Of a stretch of DNA of 36,630 nucleotides, positions 7,176 to 15,851 are shown piece after piece; within the stretch, counting starts at the first letter, position 1, and each line of letters opens with the position of its first letter. The position numbers and the translations under genes are program-made. The stretch comes from Pyrinomonadaceae bacterium. Lineage in GTDB: Bacteria > Acidobacteriota > Blastocatellia > Pyrinomonadales > Pyrinomonadaceae. The DNA is taken from NCBI GenBank assembly GCA_046595575.1, contig JBKJOR010000048.1, forward strand, positions 1 to 36,630. The letters are read 5' to 3'. A model generated the notes under the pieces. That model did not search any database. It had not been told where the DNA came from and saw only the letters and a program-made list of their open reading frames with translations.

Positions 7176-7206
7176 GGGAAGTCGGATCGAGCGGCTTCCC
7201 TATTTT
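7176..7206 (+). terminator. Rho-independent terminator candidate shared by convergent genes
   Basis: gggaagtcg (7176-7184) pairs with cggcttccc (7192-7200): 9 bp including one G-U, with a 7-nt loop, followed by tatttt. It overlaps the stop codon of the minus-strand gene. Confidence 0.55.
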
Positions 7207-8297
7207 AGGATCCTGTTCAAACCGCTATTACTCCCCCGCCGCCAGATAAATCCGTCCAGAATGTAATGCGTTAGCTGTGGAACGGCGAGTAACGGAACGA
7301 GGTAAACTTTCCATTCTGTCCAGTCCCAACTCCCTCCGAACAGCCAATTCCGTTCGTGCCACACGCCCCGATTCCAGAACAGCTCTTCGATGTACGCGAA
7401 CGCCCAGAGCGTCGCTAGAAAGACGATCCAGTTCGATGCGAACGCCCGATAAAAAACCCCCGTCGATTCACGCCGCGCTTTCATGTAAAACCAGATCAGC
7501 GCAAAGTAGGGAACGCCGTGGATTATCACGTTCGTCACGGTGAACGCATAGTCTGAGTTAAAGAGTACGATGCCGACGTACCAGCAAATTGCCGTCGTCG
7601 CGATGACGATATCTTTTCCCGGATTTAGAAAGCCAGTCGAAAAATACAGATAGATGGATTTAGCGAAGTAGCTTGCGAGCGCCAGTACGTAGATCGGAAA
7701 CAGAATGTCATCGACCAATGTCGGCAGCTGAAAGAAATCGTTCTCGACAAACCACTGAAAATTGCGGGGGAGGCTTGTCATCCAAAATGCCAGCGGATAA
7801 ACAGTCGCCAGATATATCGCGGCCGCATCGATCCACCAGGTCCAACGCGCGGTCTCGTTCTGCTTCCTTCTGTAAAGTGCGACCCATCCATATTGCTGTC
7901 TGACAAAATGAAAAACTGCGATGATCGCAAGGGCTCGCCAGAATGTAAGTTCGCCTTCCGAGTAAAGTGCAACGCCGATCGCATACCCAGCTACCGGGAC
8001 GAGTAGATAGAGCCAGAGCCGGCGTTTTAATTCTTCCTTGTCGAAATAAACGCGAAAGCTGGTTGACCAAACATGTGCAACATCGATCAGCAGGACTGCG
8101 GTGATCCATGTCCAGTCGGGCGAATCCTCATTAAGTATTCCGAGCCGCCAGCCAAGCGCGAGAAGTAAAAGTGAGGCGATCGCGCTCCCGAGGAAAACGG
8201 TGAGATCGATGCTCCGGGAGAAGAGCCAGATATTTTCTCCGCCGAGACGCGGAGACGCGGAGGTGTGAACATCGCGTTCTTTTTGCGGACTCTCCAT
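7200..8297 (-). CDS. Polytopic integral membrane protein of unknown function with four conserved-looking His motifs
   Basis: About 9-10 hydrophobic helices. Motifs DVAHVWST, FHFVRQQYGW, NVIIHGVPYF and LTHYILDGFIWRR. Starts 7 nt after the stop of the upstream flavoprotein gene. Confidence 0.7.
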   Translation of the reverse strand: MESPQKERDVHTSASPRLGGENIWLFSRSIDLTVFLGSAIASLLLLALGWRLGILNEDSPDWTWITAVLLIDVAHVWSTSFRVYFDKEELKRRLWLYLLVPVAGYAIGVALYSEGELTFWRALAIIAVFHFVRQQYGWVALYRRKQNETARWTWWIDAAAIYLATVYPLAFWMTSLPRNFQWFVENDFFQLPTLVDDILFPIYVLALASYFAKSIYLYFSTGFLNPGKDIVIATTAICWYVGIVLFNSDYAFTVTNVIIHGVPYFALIWFYMKARRESTGVFYRAFASNWIVFLATLWAFAYIEELFWNRGVWHERNWLFGGSWDWTEWKVYLVPLLAVPQLTHYILDGFIWRRGSNSGLNRILK

Positions 8298-8304
8298 ATC
8301 TCAC

Positions 8305-9918
8305 TCAGCGTCTCTGCGTCTCTGCGGTTAATACTTCTCCGGCGGCGCGAAGTCCGTGATAGAACGCTTCTTCGAACAACGCGATGCCGCTCAGGTCTGT
8401 GTGTGCGAAGTGAATATTCCGCCACGGTCTTTTCGCCTTTTCCCGAATCCCACTCCAGATAAAATTCGGCCGTGGGCTGATCATCGCATGTCCCCATCGC
8501 ATTATATCGATCCGTTCGCAGAGATCGTGGATGTCCGGATGTGCACGGGCAATATCGGTCAGGCAAACATCGGCGAGTTCGCGCCAGGAGTAATTAAATA
8601 GTTTTGTCCGGCCGTCAGGCTCGTGACACATTGGGTAATAGTAAGTCAGTATCGTCGGACCGTAGTCAATGCCTTTTTGGTGAGTCGCATTTACGTATCC
8701 GAGTGACGGACTTTCATAAAGTACGTTATCCCACGAGAGGGGAAAGTCTCTCGCGAAGCGAGTTGCCGTCCTATCCCTCAAAAACAAATTCGCTACAAAC
8801 CACGCGTTGTGCTGAAACTCGCCGGCAGCAAATGGGGCGTTATCCGCAAAGCCGCGAATGATAAACGGTGCGGTAAATACGGGCGAGGCAAAAATAACTT
8901 TCTCACACCGAAACCCACGAAGTTCGCCGCCGTCGAGACAGATCACTTCAACACCATTCTCATACGGCACAATCGAAACAACCGCGCACGACTTTCGCAC
9001 CTTCTCTTTCACCCGGTCGAAAAGATGATTTACAAAGCGCCCGTTGCCTTCCGGAAAGGTGATGAACTTCTGTGACTCGTTGCCCGATGCGCGGACGCGC
9101 GCACAGAAGTAGAATAGTCCGGCCCACGCCGACGTTTGATCGAGCTTCAGACCATAATCATCGCGACATGCGTAATCGCAATACCAGGTCAAACGTTCGG
9201 ATGTGAAGCTGTTTTGCCTGAGCCAGTCAGCGAATGAGATCTTATCGAGCGCGGTAGCTTCCGCATCGTCCGAACAATTTGCAACCGGTACTACAAACGC
9301 TCGTCGCCCGCTCGCGTCGCCCCAGTTTACCCACTGGTCGACGAGCTTTTGAAACTCTGCGAATTGCCGCTTGTCATTTTCGTTCTCGCCGGCGTGAAGA
9401 TAGAGCCCGTCATACCATCTACCCTTGTAGAAGATCCTCTCTTCGGGTTCGCGACAGAGAAACTGTTCTTTGACAATGACGTCACCGATCGCATCTGTCC
9501 CTTCGGTTAGCGACATCTCATCGAGCAATGAGATCAGCTCAATATTTTCTCGGAACGGTACCGGCAAATAATGCGCTCCCCATGGATATCCGACCGGTGT
9601 TCCATGCCCACTCTGCGACGTTCCACCGACTTCCTTCGCGAGCTCGAGTAAGACGAAGTCATTAAAATTCTCATTCGTCAGTTTCCAAGCCGCAGACAGT
9701 CCCGCGACGCCGCCGCCAACTATCGCAACCTTTATCGTCTGCCAGTTGTTCTGAGGAACTTCGAAACTGCGTCCTTCGCGCAACAGGTGCCCGAGGTCCA
9801 CATTTTGCCCAACGATCTCACCCGCAGGGAATCTGCCCGGCGCAGTGTCGCCACACGCCACCATCGCAAACGGCGCGCCGAGGAAAGTGGTTAGCAGTTC
9901 TCTTCGTGAGAGTTTCAC
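8305..9918 (-). CDS. Tat-signal FAD/NAD(P)-binding oxidoreductase, flavin amine-oxidase-like
   Basis: GTG start. Twin-arginine motif MKLSRRELLTTFLGAPFAMVACG, with a possible lipobox Cys. Dinucleotide fold VAIVGGGVAGLSAAWKL. Confidence 0.8.
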   Translation of the reverse strand: MKLSRRELLTTFLGAPFAMVACGDTAPGRFPAGEIVGQNVDLGHLLREGRSFEVPQNNWQTIKVAIVGGGVAGLSAAWKLTNENFNDFVLLELAKEVGGTSQSGHGTPVGYPWGAHYLPVPFRENIELISLLDEMSLTEGTDAIGDVIVKEQFLCREPEERIFYKGRWYDGLYLHAGENENDKRQFAEFQKLVDQWVNWGDASGRRAFVVPVANCSDDAEATALDKISFADWLRQNSFTSERLTWYCDYACRDDYGLKLDQTSAWAGLFYFCARVRASGNESQKFITFPEGNGRFVNHLFDRVKEKVRKSCAVVSIVPYENGVEVICLDGGELRGFRCEKVIFASPVFTAPFIIRGFADNAPFAAGEFQHNAWFVANLFLRDRTATRFARDFPLSWDNVLYESPSLGYVNATHQKGIDYGPTILTYYYPMCHEPDGRTKLFNYSWRELADVCLTDIARAHPDIHDLCERIDIMRWGHAMISPRPNFIWSGIREKAKRPWRNIHFAHTDLSGIALFEEAFYHGLRAAGEVLTAETQRR

Positions 9919-10359
9919 TTTTCGGAATAACTGATAACTGATAAGTGATAACTGATAAGGCTATTCATTCTTACGGGCCGTTTTCAATGATGTGATCAGG
10001 AGCTTTTGCAGTTCTTCGCAGTCGGTTAGCAAAGATTCTGCCTGAGACAAGGTAATGCGTTCCGAATCTCGCAAAAGTCTTAAGAGGAAGTTTGTCTTGA
10101 AAGCTTCTTTATTAGCGACGGAAAACTTCTGAATGAAGTCCGGGCGATTCTCTCCTTGTTTTCCTTCCTCGATCAGGAGTCCGATGTTCGTTCCTGAATC
10201 CAGAGTCTTTCTCGAAAGCACGAATTCCTTCTTTCATTACTCAAGTATTCACTCAGCTTCACGATCCGAAGCGCAAATTTGTACGACTTCTCTTGCAGTA
10301 TGTCCATGGGAGACCTCCGTTATCAGCTATTAGTTATCACATATCAGTTATTCCGAAAA
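9919..10359. mobile_element. 441-bp cassette with ~42-bp imperfect terminal inverted repeats of (ATAACTG/ATAAGTG)-type simple sequence, carrying a four-helix-bundle gene
   Basis: ttttcggaataactgata (9919-9936) is the perfect reverse complement of tatcagttattccgaaaa (10342-10359). The arms continue with related gataac/gataag units. The cassette fills the entire gap between two operon genes. Confidence 0.55.
9961..10307 (-). pseudogene. Four-helix-bundle protein (23S rRNA intervening-sequence protein family), frameshifted
   Basis: ATG at 10307 with GGAGG upstream encodes MDILQEKSYKFALRIVKLSEYLSNE. The family sequence then continues in another frame as KKEFVLSRKTLDSGTNIGLLIEEG...KTARKNE (ORF 9961-10221). 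The frame change is at about 10225-10240. Confidence 0.7.
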
Positions 10360-10361
10360 CG

Positions 10362-11879
10362 TCATTCAAATCTTCTCCATTCGGTTTCGTAATAATGAAC
10401 CAGGGCCTGGTTGTCCAGACGATTGATCTCGATATCGTCGGGCCGTGTCATGTCGGACGGGAATTCAAACATTGATGCGAAGGAGTTCGAACTAAGGAAC
10501 TTTAGCTCTACGTTTGGCGTCGGTTGCGACGGCGGATCGAATGGCTGTTGTTTGGCAAGTGCGTAGCCCCACACGCCAAAGCTCGGCACGGTAGTCTGAT
10601 ACGGCTTTACGTGAAACCCGGTAGCTTCCAGCGTTTTGATTATCGACCAGTACGAGTTGCGTGCAATGAGTGGAGAAGTGCACTGGATAACGACGGTCGA
10701 ATCGGGGTTCAACTTCGCCTTCAGTAATTTGTAGAAGCGCGTCGTGTAAAGCTTGCCGAGCGCGTAATTGTTCGGATCCGGAAAATCGACGATGGCGATA
10801 TCGAACGGCGCTAGTTCAGGGTTGTCGAGCCATACAAACGCGTCGGCGTTCGCAACCGAAACGCGCGGATCATCATAGGCTGCATGGTTAAGTTCTGAGA
10901 GCGCGGGGAGCGCCTTTGAAAGTCCGGTCATCATAGGATCGAGATCGACAAGCTGAACCGTCTCGACGGAGGGGTATTTCAGGATCTCGCGAAGAGCGAG
11001 GCCATCGCCGCCGCCTAGTACAAGCACTCGCTTCGGTTCGCCTTCGAACGCGGCAAATGCCGGGTGAACGAGAGCTTCGTGGTATCGATATTCATCAAAC
11101 GAATTGAACTGCAGGTTACCGTTCAAAAAAAGAGAGTAACCGGTCTTCCCCTTCGTCACTACGATCCGCTGATAAGGCGAACTCTTTGCGTAGATGATGT
11201 TGTCGGGAAAGAGAGCATCTTCGGCTAGAGTAGTAAGACTGTCCGCCTTGATGAACGCGATCAGCAGCAGGACGATAACGATCACACCTTTGATTCGAAA
11301 GATGATCACGTTGCGTTTGATCAAAGGCTCAAGCAGCCACGTAGCCCAGACAGCGACGACAGCGTTCAGCATTCCAAAGAGCAGCGACGTCCGGTTAAGA
11401 CCGAGCTTTGGAACCAGGAAGATCGGGAACAGCAAACTAGCCACGAGTGCTCCGACATAATCCAAGGCAAGCACACGAGAAACGAGTGTTTTGAAATCGA
11501 GTTCGTCTTTGAGGATCCGCATGAGCAGCGGTATCTCGAGACCCACGAGCGTCCCGATCAGGAAGACCATCGAATATAGGACGATCTGAAAATATGAAAT
11601 ATGCGCGAACGTAAGGAATAGGAGTGGCGCGCTGAATCCACCGAGTACGGCGACGGCGAGCTCGATATCGACGAACTTTTCGGCAATGTGTTTTTCGATA
11701 TACTGCGACAGCCACGAGCCGACGCCCATCGCAAAAAGGTAGATGCCGATGATGAGGGAAAACTGCGTCACCGAATCGCCGAGCACATAGCTTGAAAGCG
11801 TTCCGGCAAGAAGCTCATAGATCAAGCCGCACGTGGCAATGATGATGACGTTGAGGAAAAGTAGCGGGGTTCGATTCAT
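10362..11879 (-). CDS. speE: Polyamine aminopropyltransferase (spermidine-synthase-like) fused to an N-terminal polytopic membrane domain
   Basis: About seven hydrophobic helices in the first ~200 aa. C-terminal SpeE core: YQRIVVTK, YHEALVHPA, VLVLGGGDGLALRE, VQLVDLDP, IAIVDFPDP. Confidence 0.85.
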   Translation of the reverse strand: MNRTPLLFLNVIIIATCGLIYELLAGTLSSYVLGDSVTQFSLIIGIYLFAMGVGSWLSQYIEKHIAEKFVDIELAVAVLGGFSAPLLFLTFAHISYFQIVLYSMVFLIGTLVGLEIPLLMRILKDELDFKTLVSRVLALDYVGALVASLLFPIFLVPKLGLNRTSLLFGMLNAVVAVWATWLLEPLIKRNVIIFRIKGVIVIVLLLIAFIKADSLTTLAEDALFPDNIIYAKSSPYQRIVVTKGKTGYSLFLNGNLQFNSFDEYRYHEALVHPAFAAFEGEPKRVLVLGGGDGLALREILKYPSVETVQLVDLDPMMTGLSKALPALSELNHAAYDDPRVSVANADAFVWLDNPELAPFDIAIVDFPDPNNYALGKLYTTRFYKLLKAKLNPDSTVVIQCTSPLIARNSYWSIIKTLEATGFHVKPYQTTVPSFGVWGYALAKQQPFDPPSQPTPNVELKFLSSNSFASMFEFPSDMTRPDDIEINRLDNQALVHYYETEWRRFE

Positions 11880-11880
11880 A

Positions 11881-11951
11881 AAGGATAAAGGCTGAAGGAT
11901 AAAGGATAAGGTAAGGCTGAGTTTATCCTTTATCCCTTATCCTTTATCCTT
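11881..11951. repeat. Low-complexity (AAGGATAAAGG)n palindromic hairpin between speE-like and DUF350 genes
   Basis: ggataaaggataagg (11897-11911) is perfectly complementary to ccttatcctttatcc (11935-11949). Flanking units allow alternative register pairing. Confidence 0.7.
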
Positions 11952-11955
11952 TCGA

Positions 11956-12204
11956 TCAGCCCTGGATCGCCGCGGCGATAATTATCGCGATGCCGATCAT
12001 GATCGAACCGATGACGATGCCAAGCGCCGTATTTTGATCTTCTTCGATCTCTTTCTTGATCGGGTAGATAAGTCCGAGAATTCCATAAGTAACGGCAAAG
12101 ATCACGACGCCGATAAAAACGAAGATCAATGTCGTGACCAGCGTTTCAAGCAGTTGGTCGAGTTTAACGACGAGAGCAAATGGGACAAATAAGTTCATCA
12201 GCAT
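11956..12204 (-). CDS. DUF350 (YjfL-like) small membrane protein
   Basis: 82 aa with hydrophobic helices and a central KKEIEEDQNTALGIVIGSIMIGIAIIIAAAI block, as I recall for DUF350. The ATG directly abuts the upstream stop (TAAATG). Confidence 0.65.
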   Translation of the reverse strand: MLMNLFVPFALVVKLDQLLETLVTTLIFVFIGVVIFAVTYGILGLIYPIKKEIEEDQNTALGIVIGSIMIGIAIIIAAAIQG

Positions 12205-12354
12205 TTATTTTCCTCCGCGAAAACCTGTGTAGATAAACGGCACGCCGAGACGCGAACGGCTGCCGGAATTGGCGAGCTCCCAACCAAACCATGCCGCTGC
12301 GCCATACGTCAGCAGAACGCCGATTCCGAAAATTAGATAGAGTTTTTTCAACAT
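12205..12354 (-). CDS. 49-aa single-pass membrane peptide with Gly/Arg-rich tail
   Basis: MLKKLYLIFGIGVLLTYGAAAWFGW...FRGGK. The start is uncertain: ATG at 12354, or TTG at 12405 abutting the upstream stop. Confidence 0.45.
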   Translation of the reverse strand: MLKKLYLIFGIGVLLTYGAAAWFGWELANSGSRSRLGVPFIYTGFRGGK

Positions 12355-12405
12355 ATAAAATGCTCGAGTTGACGGTCGTTTGCAGACCGACCGGCTTCTT
12401 TCCAA

Positions 12406-14340
12406 TCATTCATCCGAACTGCTCGTATTGAACATGCTATCTTTCCATCGACGCGATTCGAAAGAGATCTTTCTAAATAACCCAAGCACGGGGACAACAA
12501 GGAGTACAAAAAACGCACACAGAAAATTAACTCCGCGATTCACGTTTTGCTCGACTTTTAGCGAAACCGGTATCGCAGTTTGCCAATCTTGCCAGGTACC
12601 TTCGACACGCAATGTATATTTTCCGGCGGGCAAAGCTGAGAGCGTCGCGTCCTGTTCCTTTGATCCCTCTGTCCAACTGCCGTCGCTATCCGAGCCGAAA
12701 TAATACTCGATCGGAATACTTACAGATTCGACTTCCTGGCTTTGGTCGTTCACCAGATCGACGTCAAGTTCCGCGAACGAATTGCTGACGGGTGCCGACG
12801 CGCTGATCCGAATATTGCGGTTGCCCTTTATTTCGAATGGCTGGCTGAATGCGATCTGCGGGGCGGTAGCACTGGTCATCGGCGGTAGGCTGACCTCTTG
12901 CGACAGAACGGTGTTCGTAAATCCGGCGATCGGGATCATGAAGACCGCCACGACGACCAGCAGTAGCAGGGGCAACAGTCCCCATGTGTAATAGAACCTG
13001 CCGGTGAATGGCTGATTAGGGGCTACGGACCAGGGCTTTGGCAGATCCTTCGCACCGAACGCCTTTTCGATCTCGGCATTCGTCATGTAGTTTCCGAGCG
13101 ACCAATTGATCTCGTTCTCCGTCGATTCCTGCGAAAGCATCAGCGGAGCGGAAATGTAATCGATTGCCCTTACGGTTTCACCCTGTTCGACGCGCCAGTA
13201 GAACTCGCCCTTTACATACTGAACGACCGCCGGAGCATCCTGAAAGATCTTGAACGTCGTCCCGTTATAGGTCGCCGAGCGGGCACCGAGGATGTTCGCA
13301 TCGGCGCTTACTTCTGCGGGATTCAAAGGCTCAACGAAATTCCAATGATTGTCCGAGTGCACGAGCCATCGGAATCCGATCGTCGGATTGTAGAGTAGAT
13401 ACTCGTGCCAGTAATATGTCTCGCCCTCGATCGTTACGCTGCGAACGACGGCGCCGATTATCTTAAATTTTCGGTCGTCCTTGAAAACTCCTTCGGCCCC
13501 GATCTGAAGAACGAAACTTGTATCTGCGGCAGTCGGTATCAACGATTTCAGATAACTTAGATTGCCTTGATTTACATCGAGTAAAGAATCGCAATTTGGA
13601 CACGTCACGCGTTCGGCTTTGTCCGGTGCCGTGAGTGAGAGCGGGCCGCCGCAGTTTGGGCAACCCATCGCCGCAGTCGAAGTGCGTCTGGCAGCGCGTT
13701 CCGCGGGGCGCGCATCCGCCAACCCGATGTCAGCTAGCGAAACTTGCTGGCCGATAAAAATCCACGGCGGATCCAAGCTGTAGTCGATTGTGCCGAATGC
13801 GTTATCTACTCCGGACAGGTCAGCGTACGAACTCTGTTCGTTGGGTGTCAGCTGATATGGAATCTCACCGGCGGCGGCGACGGTCGTAGCGACGCTTTTC
13901 TCGATGACCATCAGCGGCGTCGGACTGGGGATCTCAGTGACCGTCTGCCCTACCTGAAGCTGGTCGAAGGACGGAATCAATGTACCCTGCGGCAGCGGTT
14001 GGTAGAACGTCAGGTAGAAATTGCCCTGTGCTTCGGCGAGCCAGCCGACCCAACCGTTCGAAAATGTCGCGTACCATTCATCCCAATTTCCGCCGAGCTC
14101 ATGACGAAGCTGTGCTCTGCCAGTAAGCTCGAATCGAGCTCCTTTGAATTCGCCTTTCAACCCAAGCTCTAATGGGGATTGTGATTCGACTATTTCAGCG
14201 ACCTTCCCGAGATCCTGAAGCCCACGGTCATTCCGAGCGATCGCCGAACGGCAGAATGGGCACACGAGCACGATCGTCGAACCCGCTTTAAATTCAATCG
14301 GCGCGGCGCACGAAGGGCAATTTCCCTGAAGAACGCTCAA
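12406..14340 (-). CDS. Large Zn-ribbon / repeated DUF4178-like protein with two C-terminal TM helices flanking a ~150-aa beta-rich domain
   Basis: CPSC...CPFC and CPNCGG...CPNCDS ribbons, each followed by W/Y-rich blocks (WDEWYATFSNGWVGWL; YYWHEYLLYNPTIGFRWLV; FYWRVEQGE). TMs are LLPLLLLVVVAVFMIPIAGF and FLCAFFVLLVVPVLGLF. The TTG start overlaps the speH stop (TTGA). Confidence 0.7.
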   Translation of the reverse strand: MSVLQGNCPSCAAPIEFKAGSTIVLVCPFCRSAIARNDRGLQDLGKVAEIVESQSPLELGLKGEFKGARFELTGRAQLRHELGGNWDEWYATFSNGWVGWLAEAQGNFYLTFYQPLPQGTLIPSFDQLQVGQTVTEIPSPTPLMVIEKSVATTVAAAGEIPYQLTPNEQSSYADLSGVDNAFGTIDYSLDPPWIFIGQQVSLADIGLADARPAERAARRTSTAAMGCPNCGGPLSLTAPDKAERVTCPNCDSLLDVNQGNLSYLKSLIPTAADTSFVLQIGAEGVFKDDRKFKIIGAVVRSVTIEGETYYWHEYLLYNPTIGFRWLVHSDNHWNFVEPLNPAEVSADANILGARSATYNGTTFKIFQDAPAVVQYVKGEFYWRVEQGETVRAIDYISAPLMLSQESTENEINWSLGNYMTNAEIEKAFGAKDLPKPWSVAPNQPFTGRFYYTWGLLPLLLLVVVAVFMIPIAGFTNTVLSQEVSLPPMTSATAPQIAFSQPFEIKGNRNIRISASAPVSNSFAELDVDLVNDQSQEVESVSIPIEYYFGSDSDGSWTEGSKEQDATLSALPAGKYTLRVEGTWQDWQTAIPVSLKVEQNVNRGVNFLCAFFVLLVVPVLGLFRKISFESRRWKDSMFNTSSSDE

Positions 14341-14819
14341 GCTTCACCTCCGGCGGTTTGCGATCTCCGGTGGGAAGCTTTAGATTTCCGGTCTGGGATT
14401 TGAGATCTTAAATTTGAAATTTCAGACTTCTGGTTTGAGATTTGAAATTGCAAATTTGAACTTTCAGATCGCAAGCTCGAATCACCGCGTTCGATCTTCG
14501 ATACTGTAACCGTCGCGGCACCGATGAGCTCTTTAAGGTTCGACTCCCAATCCCATTCGGGTCGCGTCCGGCAACAGTAGAGATTGAAGGTCGCTGTTCC
14601 GTGTTCGGGGTACGTATGACAGGCCAGGTGCGATTCGGTGAGGGCTATCAGCCCGGTGACACCGCCTTCGCCGGGAAACGTGTGCCAAATTGAATCGATC
14701 GCTTTCAGACTAAGATCCGTGACGACGCGATGAAAGATCTCACGCATCAGCGATTCGTCGCGCAGACTTGCCTGGTTGCACCCTGTCGCCTCGATCAGCC
14801 ATTCGGTTCCAACGATCAT
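14337..14819 (-). CDS. speH: S-adenosylmethionine decarboxylase proenzyme (small bacterial SpeH/SpeD class) with a repeat-encoded C-terminal tail
   Basis: Self-processing and active-site block LIALTESHLACHTYPEHGTATFNLYCC. The core ends near KIERGD (about aa 113). The remaining ~47 aa (SNLQFQISNQKSEISNLRSQI...) are encoded by the simple repeat at 14381-14470. Confidence 0.85.
   Translation of the reverse strand: MIVGTEWLIEATGCNQASLRDESLMREIFHRVVTDLSLKAIDSIWHTFPGEGGVTGLIALTESHLACHTYPEHGTATFNLYCCRTRPEWDWESNLKELIGAATVTVSKIERGDSSLRSESSNLQFQISNQKSEISNLRSQIPDRKSKASHRRSQTAGGEA
14381..14470. repeat. TTTGAGAT/TTTGAAAT-type simple repeat tract read through in frame by speH
   Basis: gggatttgagatc, aaatttgaaatttcag, ggtttgagatttgaaattgcaaatttgaactttcag. 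Contains the local palindromes gaaatttc and caaatttg. Confidence 0.6.
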
Positions 14820-14880: not shown

Positions 14881-14891
14881 TATACTTGGTG

Positions 14892-15851
14892 ATGATGTCG
14901 AACAAAACTATAGCGAAATTTGCCTTCATTGTCATTTTGTTCGGCGGCTCGGTCGCGTTCGCGACTTCGTGCTCGCATACTTCTTCGAACACCCGGTACC
15001 TGGTAGACGCGGCGGCTATGTCGCCTGATTATGACAAGCCCGTTATCGTTGGACGGATACAGTCGGACGAGATCACCGAAAGCAGCGGCGTTGCTGCTTC
15101 ACTCTGTCAGTCTGGCGTCCTCTGGACGCATAACGATTCGGGTGATGATGCATTCATCTTCGCGATCAACATGAAGGGCGATCACCTCGGCACCTGGCGA
15201 GTTTCCGGCGCACGCAATCGCGACTGGGAAGACATCGCCGCTTTCAAAGACGGGTCAGGTACCTGCTACCTGTACATCGGCGACATCGGCAACAATAAGG
15301 GCGAGCGTGCGGAGCAGACAGTTTATCGCGTCAAGGAGCCGCCAGCCTCGGCCGACTCTTCCAAAACAAACAAAAAGAGTCCGGGACAAACAGAACCCTC
15401 GGAAGCTCTTGTCTTTAAATATCCGGATCAGCTTCACGACGCTGAGACTCTGCTGGTGCAGCCTAAAAACGGGAATCTATACATTCTGACAAAACGTATT
15501 GACGGCCCCTCGATCGTATTCAAGATCATGCCGCTCTTCGCTGGTTCGGAAACGGTCTATGCCGAGCGTGTTGCCGAGGTTTCTTTACCCGCCGTTCCGA
15601 ATGGACTCTTGACAGGCGGTGCCATTTCGCAGGACGCAATGCATGTGGTCTTGTGTGATTATTCCGCGGCGTACGTGTTGGATATCGGAACCTTACAGAA
15701 CTTCGATGACGTATGGAAGGGGAAACCCGTCGTGGTCGATCTTGGCGATCGAAAGCAAGGTGAAGCGGTTACGTTCAGCGCGGACGGACGATCGATAATC
15801 GCGACAAGCGAAAGAAAGCACTCGCCCGTGACCGAAGTAAAAAAGAAATAG
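14892..15851 (+). CDS. Secreted hypothetical protein, probably a beta-propeller (SdiA-regulated/phytase-like fold guess)
   Basis: Signal-like start MSNKTIAKFAFIVILFGGSVAFA. Motifs ITESSGVAAS, LWTHNDSGDD, DWEDIA, YLYIGDIGNN. Start ambiguous (TTG 14886, GTG 14889, ATG 14892 or 14895). Confidence 0.65.
   Translation: MMSNKTIAKFAFIVILFGGSVAFATSCSHTSSNTRYLVDAAAMSPDYDKPVIVGRIQSDEITESSGVAASLCQSGVLWTHNDSGDDAFIFAINMKGDHLGTWRVSGARNRDWEDIAAFKDGSGTCYLYIGDIGNNKGERAEQTVYRVKEPPASADSSKTNKKSPGQTEPSEALVFKYPDQLHDAETLLVQPKNGNLYILTKRIDGPSIVFKIMPLFAGSETVYAERVAEVSLPAVPNGLLTGGAISQDAMHVVLCDYSAAYVLDIGTLQNFDDVWKGKPVVVDLGDRKQGEAVTFSADGRSIIATSERKHSPVTEVKKK

Follow-up and report, generated by a model that had tools for sequence, protein, structure and literature searches.

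Gene clusters built around membrane-fused aminopropyltransferases are already known from comparative genomics. Ravi et al. 2024 (mSystems, PMC11237479) described a spermine/spermidine-synthase-like protein fused to seven transmembrane (7TM) segments that stands with a YjfL/DUF350 protein, a lipoprotein and a DUF4178 protein beside a CesT/Tir-PspA pair, as well as variant operons with a band-7/SHOCT protein, an S-adenosylmethionine (SAM) decarboxylase (AdoMetDC) and a polyamine oxidase; monitoring of polyamines "or aminopropylation of other substrates" was proposed as their role. The stretch of Pyrinomonadaceae DNA analyzed here (contig JBKJOR010000048.1, positions 1 to 36,630; its whole length of 36,630 nucleotides is called the window below) holds a cluster of this type at 7200-14819. 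Its seven genes encode, in the order in which they would be read, an AdoMetDC (SpeH), a DUF4178 protein, a mini peptide, a DUF350 protein, an aminopropyltransferase fused to membrane segments (TM-SpeE), an exported flavin oxidase and a polytopic protein with four invariant His (g7). The original prediction for this DNA, made from the letters alone, had named the co-occurrence of DUF350, DUF4178 and SpeE-like genes as one already noted, which PMC11237479 confirms. We consider it reasonably probable (about 0.6), on the sequence evidence set out below, that the operon is a membrane-bound pathway of aminopropyl transfer and oxidation aimed at the cell envelope, not at bulk spermidine synthesis. 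No product has been reported for the cluster type, and the window carries a scaffold-free variant of it with the four-His protein.

Thousands of genomes reportedly combine a membrane-aminopropyltransferase (APT) fusion with a functional class 1b AdoMetDC while spermidine is absent, according to work by Li and colleagues in 2019; in the same work the fusion is said to fail to complement an E. coli speE mutant, and DUF350 to be clustered with these genes. According to a passage in PMC12803844 that cites Li et al. 2019 (Biochem J 476:2579), a paper to which Ravi et al. 2024 also refer, experiments have shown that the bacterial homologues of the membrane-APT fusion take no part in spermidine/spermine synthesis. 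A literature search found no biochemical function for DUF4178, DUF350 or the fusion.

A seven-gene unit that recurs across phyla

The seven open reading frames (ORFs) lie head to tail on the minus strand, every one at the coordinates first noted (Table 1), and all of the junctions described for them are present in the sequence, so that the prediction of seven tightly coupled genes holds. The stop codon of speH overlaps the start of the DUF4178 gene by 4 nt (TTGA at 14337-14340), the mini gene abuts the DUF350 gene with 0 nt between them (TAAATG at 12202-12207), and the oxidase gene is separated from g7 by 7 nt (8298-8304). By this layout, the seven genes are one compact operon with predicted translational coupling. 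The flanking genes, which encode a GWxTD protein, a PDZ protein and an aminotransferase, lie on the opposite strand or have unrelated functions.

A genome-collection scan anchored on TM-SpeE gave 80 loci, all from Pyrinomonadaceae/Blastocatellia at 79-96% identity, and the gene order is retained in every one of these close relatives. Homologue searches for g7 and the DUF4178 protein likewise listed 120 matches, all of them from close relatives. Cross-phylum cases came from tblastn against annotated plasmids and chromids and from a search of 50%-identity representatives. Gemmatirosa kalamazoonensis (Gemmatimonadota) has the order of the window, SPFH-speH-DUF4178 (two genes)-mini-DUF350-TM-SpeE-oxidase, with 54% identity to the window for TM-SpeE and 38% for the oxidase. 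In Novosphingobium (Alphaproteobacteria), speD has moved to the end of the cluster (SPFH-DUF4178x2-mini-DUF350-TM-SpeE-oxidase-speD). Ralstonia solanacearum and Burkholderia stagnalis (Betaproteobacteria) have a DUF350-SPFH/SHOCT-DUF4178-mini-speD unit and a separate TM-SpeE-oxidase pair. In Burkholderia these units lie side by side and are read away from each other; in Ralstonia, 11 kb separate them. Two Bacteroidota-like metagenome contigs, which are probably from Bacteroidota because of their Por_Secre_tail and BatD neighbors, carry all seven genes (AdoMet_dc, DUF4178, mini, DUF350, Spermine_synth, oxidase and g7) with overlapping reading frames, and in a third (P0335), where no mini gene is called, the other six of the seven stand in this order.

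The doubt raised with the original prediction, that the neighborhood might not be conserved beyond close relatives, is thus answered by a six-gene core (AdoMetDC, DUF4178, mini, DUF350, TM-SpeE and exported oxidase) that Gemmatimonadota and Alpha- and Betaproteobacteria have in common, in most cases alongside SPFH, and by the Bacteroidota-like contigs. The same order, with stop/start overlaps, is met again in at least four further lineages of phylum rank. Such an arrangement goes far beyond what chance would give, and the seven-gene unit is genuine and shared by several phyla. Comparison of the window with the other phyla defines a minimal conserved gene set, and among its carriers Ralstonia solanacearum, Burkholderia, Novosphingobium and Gemmatirosa are culturable and genetically tractable.

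Table 1. Features of the locus, with positions counted along the window
Feature	Position	Strand	Characteristics
g7, 10-TM four-His protein	7200..8297	-	365 aa; unannotated family; invariant D72, H75, H130, Q134, H260, Y264, Q341, H344, D348
FAD amine oxidoreductase (oxidase)	8305..9918	-	PF01593; twin-arginine signal SRRELL; lipobox Cys (MVAC)
Inserted cassette	9919..10361	-	frameshifted four-helix-bundle (23S rRNA IVP) gene between SpeE and oxidase genes
Aminopropyltransferase (TM-SpeE)	10362..11879	-	505 aa; fused to seven N-terminal hydrophobic segments (PRK03612 type); PF01564 E 6e-36 at aa 264-445
Palindromic GGATAAA-unit repeat	11880..11952	.	30-nt arms, 90% complementary; 13-nt loop
DUF350 (YjfL-family) small membrane protein	11956..12204	-	PF03994 E 3.5e-11
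Mini peptide	12205..12354	-	49 aa; N-terminal signal/anchor helix; conserved tail ending GGK-COOH
DUF4178/Zn-ribbon membrane protein	12406..14340	-	644 aa; PF13785 E 3.3e-26
speH, class 1b AdoMetDC proenzyme	14337..14819	-	PF02675 E 5.5e-24
Promoter candidate	14907..14935	-	sigma-70-like ATGACA-17-TATAGT; ~88 nt 5' of speH; consensus match 10/12

The encoded proteins and their placement at the membrane

Domain calls rest on Pfam and NCBIfam profile searches of the window ORFs. All of the parts that were first assigned hold: an AdoMetDC, whose ES/H/C processing motif is intact; a SpeE-type transferase fused to about seven transmembrane (TM) helices, with intact catalytic residues behind seven hydrophobic segments; a flanking DUF350 protein, by its PF03994 match; a double Zn-ribbon/DUF4178 protein with an extracytoplasmic part, in the form of a TM hairpin with an outward insert; a twin-arginine (Tat)-signal flavin amine-oxidase-like protein, by its RR motif and PF01593 match; and a polytopic protein with a His motif, which has four invariant His and ten membrane helices. 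The mini-TM peptide is likewise present, but its gene starts at the ATG at 12354 (49 aa) and not at the TTG at 12405. No Pfam or NCBIfam family was matched by the mini ORF (12205-12405) or by g7.

In SpeH, the residues for processing and catalysis (ESH...H...C) can be aligned with those of the AdoMetDC proenzymes of T. maritima and Aquifex (1tlu, 2iii); as a processing-competent class 1b AdoMetDC, it would supply decarboxylated SAM (dcSAM). Its score against TIGR03330 is 74.6, the cutoff being 75.65. The catalytic domain takes up aa 1-112 (14484-14819), and the last 48 residues (aa 113-160) are a translated hypervariable simple repeat (14340-14483) with units that resemble SEISNLKSQIPDQK. Among relatives, this tail varies in length from 3 to 250 aa, and the only conserved part is the final AGG(D/E)x, which encodes a GGAGG ribosome-binding site, together with the xTGA overlap (ATGA, TTGA or GTGA) between the speH stop and the start of the DUF4178 gene. 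Loci L016 and L062 have a long in-frame insert at this junction; for that of L016 the match is to an IS200-like Y1 transposase (PF01797, E 1.2e-11), a hint of REP/RAYT-type activity here. The codon aligned to the DUF4178 start is ATA in L023, L031, L039 and L044 and CTG in L025, L042 and L051, and in these relatives the start may be non-canonical or located elsewhere; L009 has the same TAG junction.

The fused transferase is matched over its full length by the NCBIfam model NF002956/PRK03612 (660 bits, cutoff 472). It does not reach the cutoff of the canonical speE model TIGR00417 (139.7 bits vs 249.55) and is also below that of MFS_SpdSyn (34.4 vs 40). The catalytic domain aligns with Thermus SpeE (1uir/3anx) at E 1.6e-35 and keeps GGGDG, YHE and the D-x-x-D pair VDFPDP; the roles of the dcSAM-binding and catalytic residues (D101, D173, D176 and Y76 in T. 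maritima) are those given in PMC7298707. Its closest solved structures are 1uir/3anx, 7xif and the thermospermine synthase 6bq2, with E. coli SpeE (3o4f) scoring lower. Three acidic residues inside the TM helices (E22, E114 and D140) are invariant in seven lineages.

On which side of the membrane does the catalytic domain lie? In nine lineages, Lys and Arg are concentrated at the N-terminus of TM-SpeE and in its loops 2-3, 4-5 and 6-7 and are nearly absent from loops 1-2 and 3-4; the stretch past segment 7 is acidic. If segment 7 spans the membrane, this charge bias would put the catalytic domain on the outer side. The hydrophobicity of segment 7 equals that of the other segments in eight of the nine lineages. 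If, on the other hand, segment 7 is merely peripheral, the transferase domain would be cytoplasmic, as is usually assumed.

The DUF4178 protein is composed of two (Zn-ribbon + DUF4178) modules, a TM helix (454-472), the outward beta-rich insert, a second TM helix (604-622) and a conserved C-terminal RRW tail. Its TTG start at 14340 is correct, a choice supported by the conserved N-terminal CPSC Zn-ribbon motif, which follows ATG starts in relatives; the public gene call, of 621 aa, cuts into the first zinc ribbon. Comparison of the window gene with L082, L083, L087, L093 and L095 shows the two modules to be fused paralogues. In Gemmatirosa, Novosphingobium and Tritonibacter the first module is encoded by an overlapping gene of its own, and the Bacteroidota-like clusters lack it; Acidobacteria, Gemmatirosa, Tritonibacter and L095 have the outward insert, and Betaproteobacteria do not. 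A profile search of PDB sequences with this protein found Zn-ribbon similarity only (e.g., LysW, E 5e-4).

The mini peptide has a positively charged N-terminus and one hydrophobic helix, and its length is 49-50 aa in 78 related loci. In Pyrinomonadaceae, the tail WFGWE[LI]ANSGSxSRLGVPF[IF]Y[TS]GF[RH]GGK is near-invariant, with GGK at the end of all 77 complete copies, and the hydrophobic N-terminal part drifts. A C-terminal Lys is present in each of the eight lineages in which the peptide was found (GGK, SHK, GHK, HGK, SHK, RVK, RHK and YHK), and in three of them (Burkholderia, Tritonibacter and L095) the peptide has a lipobox-like Cys.

The oxidase matches the PF01593 profile over positions 1-443 of 443 (55.2 bits, gathering threshold 19.8), and has an N-terminal FAD Rossmann motif (NAD_binding_8, E 4.3e-10); its N-terminal part also shows weak similarity to spermine oxidase 7oxl (E 4e-4). 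Its signal reads SRRELL...FAMVAC in the window. Among 75 relatives, the RR motif is present in 73 and the lipobox in 62; both are also found in Novosphingobium, Gemmatirosa and L089, only RR in Ralstonia, and RK plus a lipobox or anchor in the Bacteroidota-like oxidases. The protein is predicted to be a Tat-signal lipoprotein, and the combination of a twin-arginine signal with the usual lipobox implies that it acts outside the cytoplasm.

The g7 family, for which there is no Pfam or NCBIfam model, has 1132 clusters (313 at E <1e-30) among the 50%-identity representatives; P0241-P0390 are representatives of it. Thirteen columns, including H75, H130, H260 and H344, are invariant across 81 diverse members, and an AlphaFold model of g7 with 81 diverse representatives (pLDDT 93.9, pTM 0.90) has ten membrane helices. 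A model from 40 close homologues (pLDDT 58.7) was discarded. Foldseek found nothing significant for the retained model in the PDB (best E 0.34, TM-score ~0.2). The loop charges point to an N-in/C-in topology, in which all of the invariant His are on the out-to-in helices 2, 4, 8 and 10, at 11-17 residues beneath the outer end. This similar depth suggests one metal center in place of two stacked hemes and disfavors a di-heme cytochrome b that takes electrons from the oxidase. In 8 of 11 sampled lineages (with representatives 34-56% identical to the window g7), the gene is directly downstream of an oxidase homologue. A minority of g7 genes adjoin FA_desaturase/MFS genes instead (L088), and rare fusions to an M1 peptidase or LptD look like gene-call merges. 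Given the breadth of the family, its recurring adjacency to the oxidase and the full operons elsewhere, the view of g7 as a mere lineage-specific neighbor was dropped.

How might these parts work together? The DUF4178 protein, whose cytoplasmic Zn-ribbon/beta modules are carried by a TM hairpin and whose start overlaps the speH stop, probably docks SpeH at the membrane, and dcSAM would be passed directly to the transferase. The latter would aminopropylate an acceptor other than putrescine, be it a polyamine of greater length, the head group of a lipid or the mini peptide at its C-terminal Lys. The acid-lined membrane domain of TM-SpeE would pass a cationic substrate or product across the membrane, and the Tat-exported lipoprotein oxidase, together with its four-His partner, would oxidize an amine of the product on the outer face. 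DUF350 and the mini peptide would be small membrane subunits or substrates. Because the core is linked to SPFH/PspA membrane-stress scaffolds in other phyla, envelope maintenance under stress is a likely role. The hedged model offered at the outset, in which a non-canonical acceptor is made at the membrane and oxidized outside, fits this evidence, and confidence in any particular acceptor is much less than that in the general picture. On the megaplasmid of Ralstonia solanacearum (L084 12218-20157), a five-gene ABC transporter of the branched-chain-amino-acid type is directly upstream of, and co-oriented with, the TM-SpeE-oxidase pair, and may import the acceptor or a precursor.

The gaps within the operon had been assigned to a hairpin and an inserted cassette, and both are present, with limits refined to those in Table 1. 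The palindrome fills the DUF350-SpeE spacer and ends at the SpeE ATG; its GGATAAA unit is found nowhere else in the window. The cassette has a frameshift near 10221 and inverted TCAGTTA heptamer arrays at 9927-9955 and 10316-10351. Only 24 of the 80 relatives have it, at this very site, and its behavior is thus that of a small mobile cassette; in relatives without it, the SpeE and oxidase genes abut. It is not part of the aminopropyl-transfer system. Upstream of the operon, a divergently transcribed gene (14886-15851, plus strand, 321 aa) is without a Pfam match; most relatives have it in synteny, at an identity of only 42-74%, and it is, alongside SpeH, among the most divergent of the genes compared. 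Promoter and terminator scans gave matches no commoner than chance (judged for promoters against shuffled sequence), and an Rfam search found no RNA family.

Alternative readings and the evidence for and against them

Several observations weigh against an envelope-directed pathway. NF002956 is an equivalog named "polyamine aminopropyltransferase". The best NCBIfam match of the oxidase is a weak one, to PigB, and PF01593 also includes non-amine oxidoreductases. At least three Pyrinomonadaceae loci (L011, L033 and L067) lack g7, and the Proteobacteria and Gemmatimonadota clusters examined do not carry it. Finally, unrelated flanking genes are equally syntenic in Pyrinomonadaceae, so that synteny among close relatives says little on function. 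This last point, the full-length equivalog match and the intact catalytic residues of TM-SpeE would all suit ordinary housekeeping spermidine synthesis by speH and the fused speE, with the other five genes as unrelated neighbors. We hold this reading to be very improbable: the same partners, in the same order and with overlapping frames, are found in four other phylum-level lineages, TM-SpeE falls short of the TIGR00417 cutoff, and the passage in PMC12803844 reports that bacterial homologues of the fusion have no role in spermidine synthesis. An unusual free polyamine that is made and then exported is also conceivable, for example thermospermine that is cut by the oxidase to norspermidine (as in a eukaryotic algal route), or long-chain polyamines that coat the surface. 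The closest solved relatives of the transferase are broad- or long-substrate enzymes (1uir/3anx and 6bq2, ahead of E. coli SpeE), the acidic residues in the TM helices suit polyamine transport, and a route to norspermidine/norspermine in which an aminopropyltransferase is paired with a polyamine oxidase has been described (PMC12803844). Such a product would nevertheless leave the conserved DUF4178, DUF350, mini and four-His partners unexplained, its oxidation in the periplasm after export seems wasteful, and the fusion homologues are reported, in the same passage of PMC12803844, not to make spermidine or spermine; we regard it as rather unlikely. SpeH itself might be a neofunctionalized pyruvoyl Arg/Orn decarboxylase that makes the acceptor (agmatine or putrescine), with dcSAM coming from elsewhere. 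That AdoMetDC homologues can be neofunctionalized Orn/Arg decarboxylases is a further point against the envelope pathway; the conversion is widespread and invisible from the Pfam family alone (PMC10407285; the legend of its Fig. 7 names Li et al. 2019, ref 46, among the sources of published enzymatic activities of SpeD homologues), and the SpeH score does fall just below the TIGR03330 cutoff. Its central motif is close to those of the bona fide T. maritima and Aquifex AdoMetDCs, however, and the adjoining aminopropyltransferase requires dcSAM. The AdoMetDCs of such clusters are also said by Li and colleagues (2019) to be enzymatically functional, and a changed specificity of SpeH thus seems exceedingly improbable.

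If the envelope is the target, what is the acceptor? The mini peptide is one candidate: its C-terminal Lys would be aminopropylated (+57 Da), and the new amine would be oxidized by the exported oxidase to an aldehyde and cross-linked to an envelope component. This Lys is retained in eight lineages though the remaining tail diverges between phyla, and within Pyrinomonadaceae the tail is nearly invariant and the anchor drifts. The lipobox-like Cys of the Burkholderia, Tritonibacter and L095 copies would be in keeping with the idea, as would an N-in orientation, which puts the tail on the side of the exported oxidase, and a layout like that of Braun's lipoprotein, which is anchored via its C-terminal Lys. 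The argument is purely inferential, however, and it needs the transferase domain and the tail to be on one side of the membrane; no mini gene is called in the related P0335 contig, and the Alteromonas/Shewanella-type variant has none. Nor do we know of a bacterial aminopropyltransferase that modifies protein lysine, and we hold this acceptor to be distinctly unlikely. A related proposal would move the aminopropyl transfer itself outside the cytoplasm, with DUF4178-docked SpeH feeding dcSAM through an acid-lined 7-TM conduit to an outward transferase, which would modify the mini C-terminal Lys or another envelope amine, and with the oxidase and the four-His protein oxidizing the product for cross-linking. 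The placement of the transferase on the trans side by charge bias, should segment 7 span the membrane, conflicts with a cytoplasmic supply of dcSAM, a difficulty that also counts against the envelope pathway as a whole, and to our knowledge there is no precedent for dcSAM crossing a membrane; transfer on the outer side is a doubtful proposition. If it were true, the periplasm would for the first time be seen to host the transfer of a SAM-derived group, and the envelope would be modified in a novel way. For the broader reading, too, a product that modifies the envelope would matter to the biology of membrane stress and to the surface chemistry of soil bacteria that are abundant.

Relation to described systems

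Among the closest described relatives of the locus are the operons of Ravi et al. 2024, whose band-7/AdoMetDC/oxidase variants match the Ralstonia, Burkholderia, Novosphingobium and Gemmatirosa clusters. Unlike these operons, the window has no PspA, CesT/Tir or SPFH gene in its 36.6 kb (tblastn with the Gemmatirosa SPFH protein gave no match across the whole of it), and the 10-TM four-His protein is found in place of the scaffold genes. The window's DUF4178 protein is anchored in the membrane and bears an outward insert, whereas DUF4178 is predicted to be intracellular in PMC11237479. The clusters of Li et al. 2019 reportedly share with the window a class 1b AdoMetDC beside a fusion of a polytopic membrane protein and an aminopropyltransferase-like domain, with DUF350 clustered; the membrane part is reportedly termed MFS-like there, whereas the TM-SpeE of the window is below the MFS_SpdSyn cutoff and far above that of PRK03612. 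The Alteromonas/Shewanella-type operon (TMSpeE-speD-chaperone-like-PspA/TelA-like-DUF4178-lipoprotein-8TM DUF350) also has a TM-SpeE (34% identical), an AdoMetDC, DUF4178 and DUF350, but it lacks the oxidase, the mini peptide and the four-His protein, and its DUF4178 protein is short (185 aa) and its DUF350 protein long (289 aa).

More distant systems share single parts with the locus. The speD2-speE2 pair of P. aeruginosa (PA4773-PA4774), to which the original prediction had pointed, resembles the window in that a class 1b AdoMetDC gene is immediately upstream of an atypical aminopropyltransferase gene, and in its link to envelope and antibiotic stress. The analogy proves weak, however, since SpeE2 (PA4774) is a soluble thermospermine synthase of 349 aa (PMC11107197) with no TM fusion and none of the partner genes, as against 505 aa and seven hydrophobic segments in the window. 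The 847-aa SpeE2 of the Pseudomonas ISS locus was set aside as a relative, since its catalytic residues are altered and its family is another one. In E. coli, yjfIJKLMC has a DUF350 membrane protein (YjfL) beside polyamine-related and PspA-like genes, but the enzyme there is a glutathionylspermidine-synthetase-like ATP-grasp ligase, and aminopropyltransferase, AdoMetDC, DUF4178 and oxidase are all lacking. Canonical SpeD and SpeE carry out the same SAM decarboxylation and aminopropyl transfer with the same catalytic residues; canonical SpeE, however, is soluble and of ~290 aa, whereas the protein of the window is membrane-fused, fails TIGR00417 and stands among five conserved non-polyamine partners. 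Against this background, and as far as we could find, the apparently new elements are the conserved C-terminal Lys of the mini peptide, the Tat-lipoprotein nature predicted for the oxidase, the pairing of oxidase and g7, the orphan fold of g7 and the puzzling topology of TM-SpeE.

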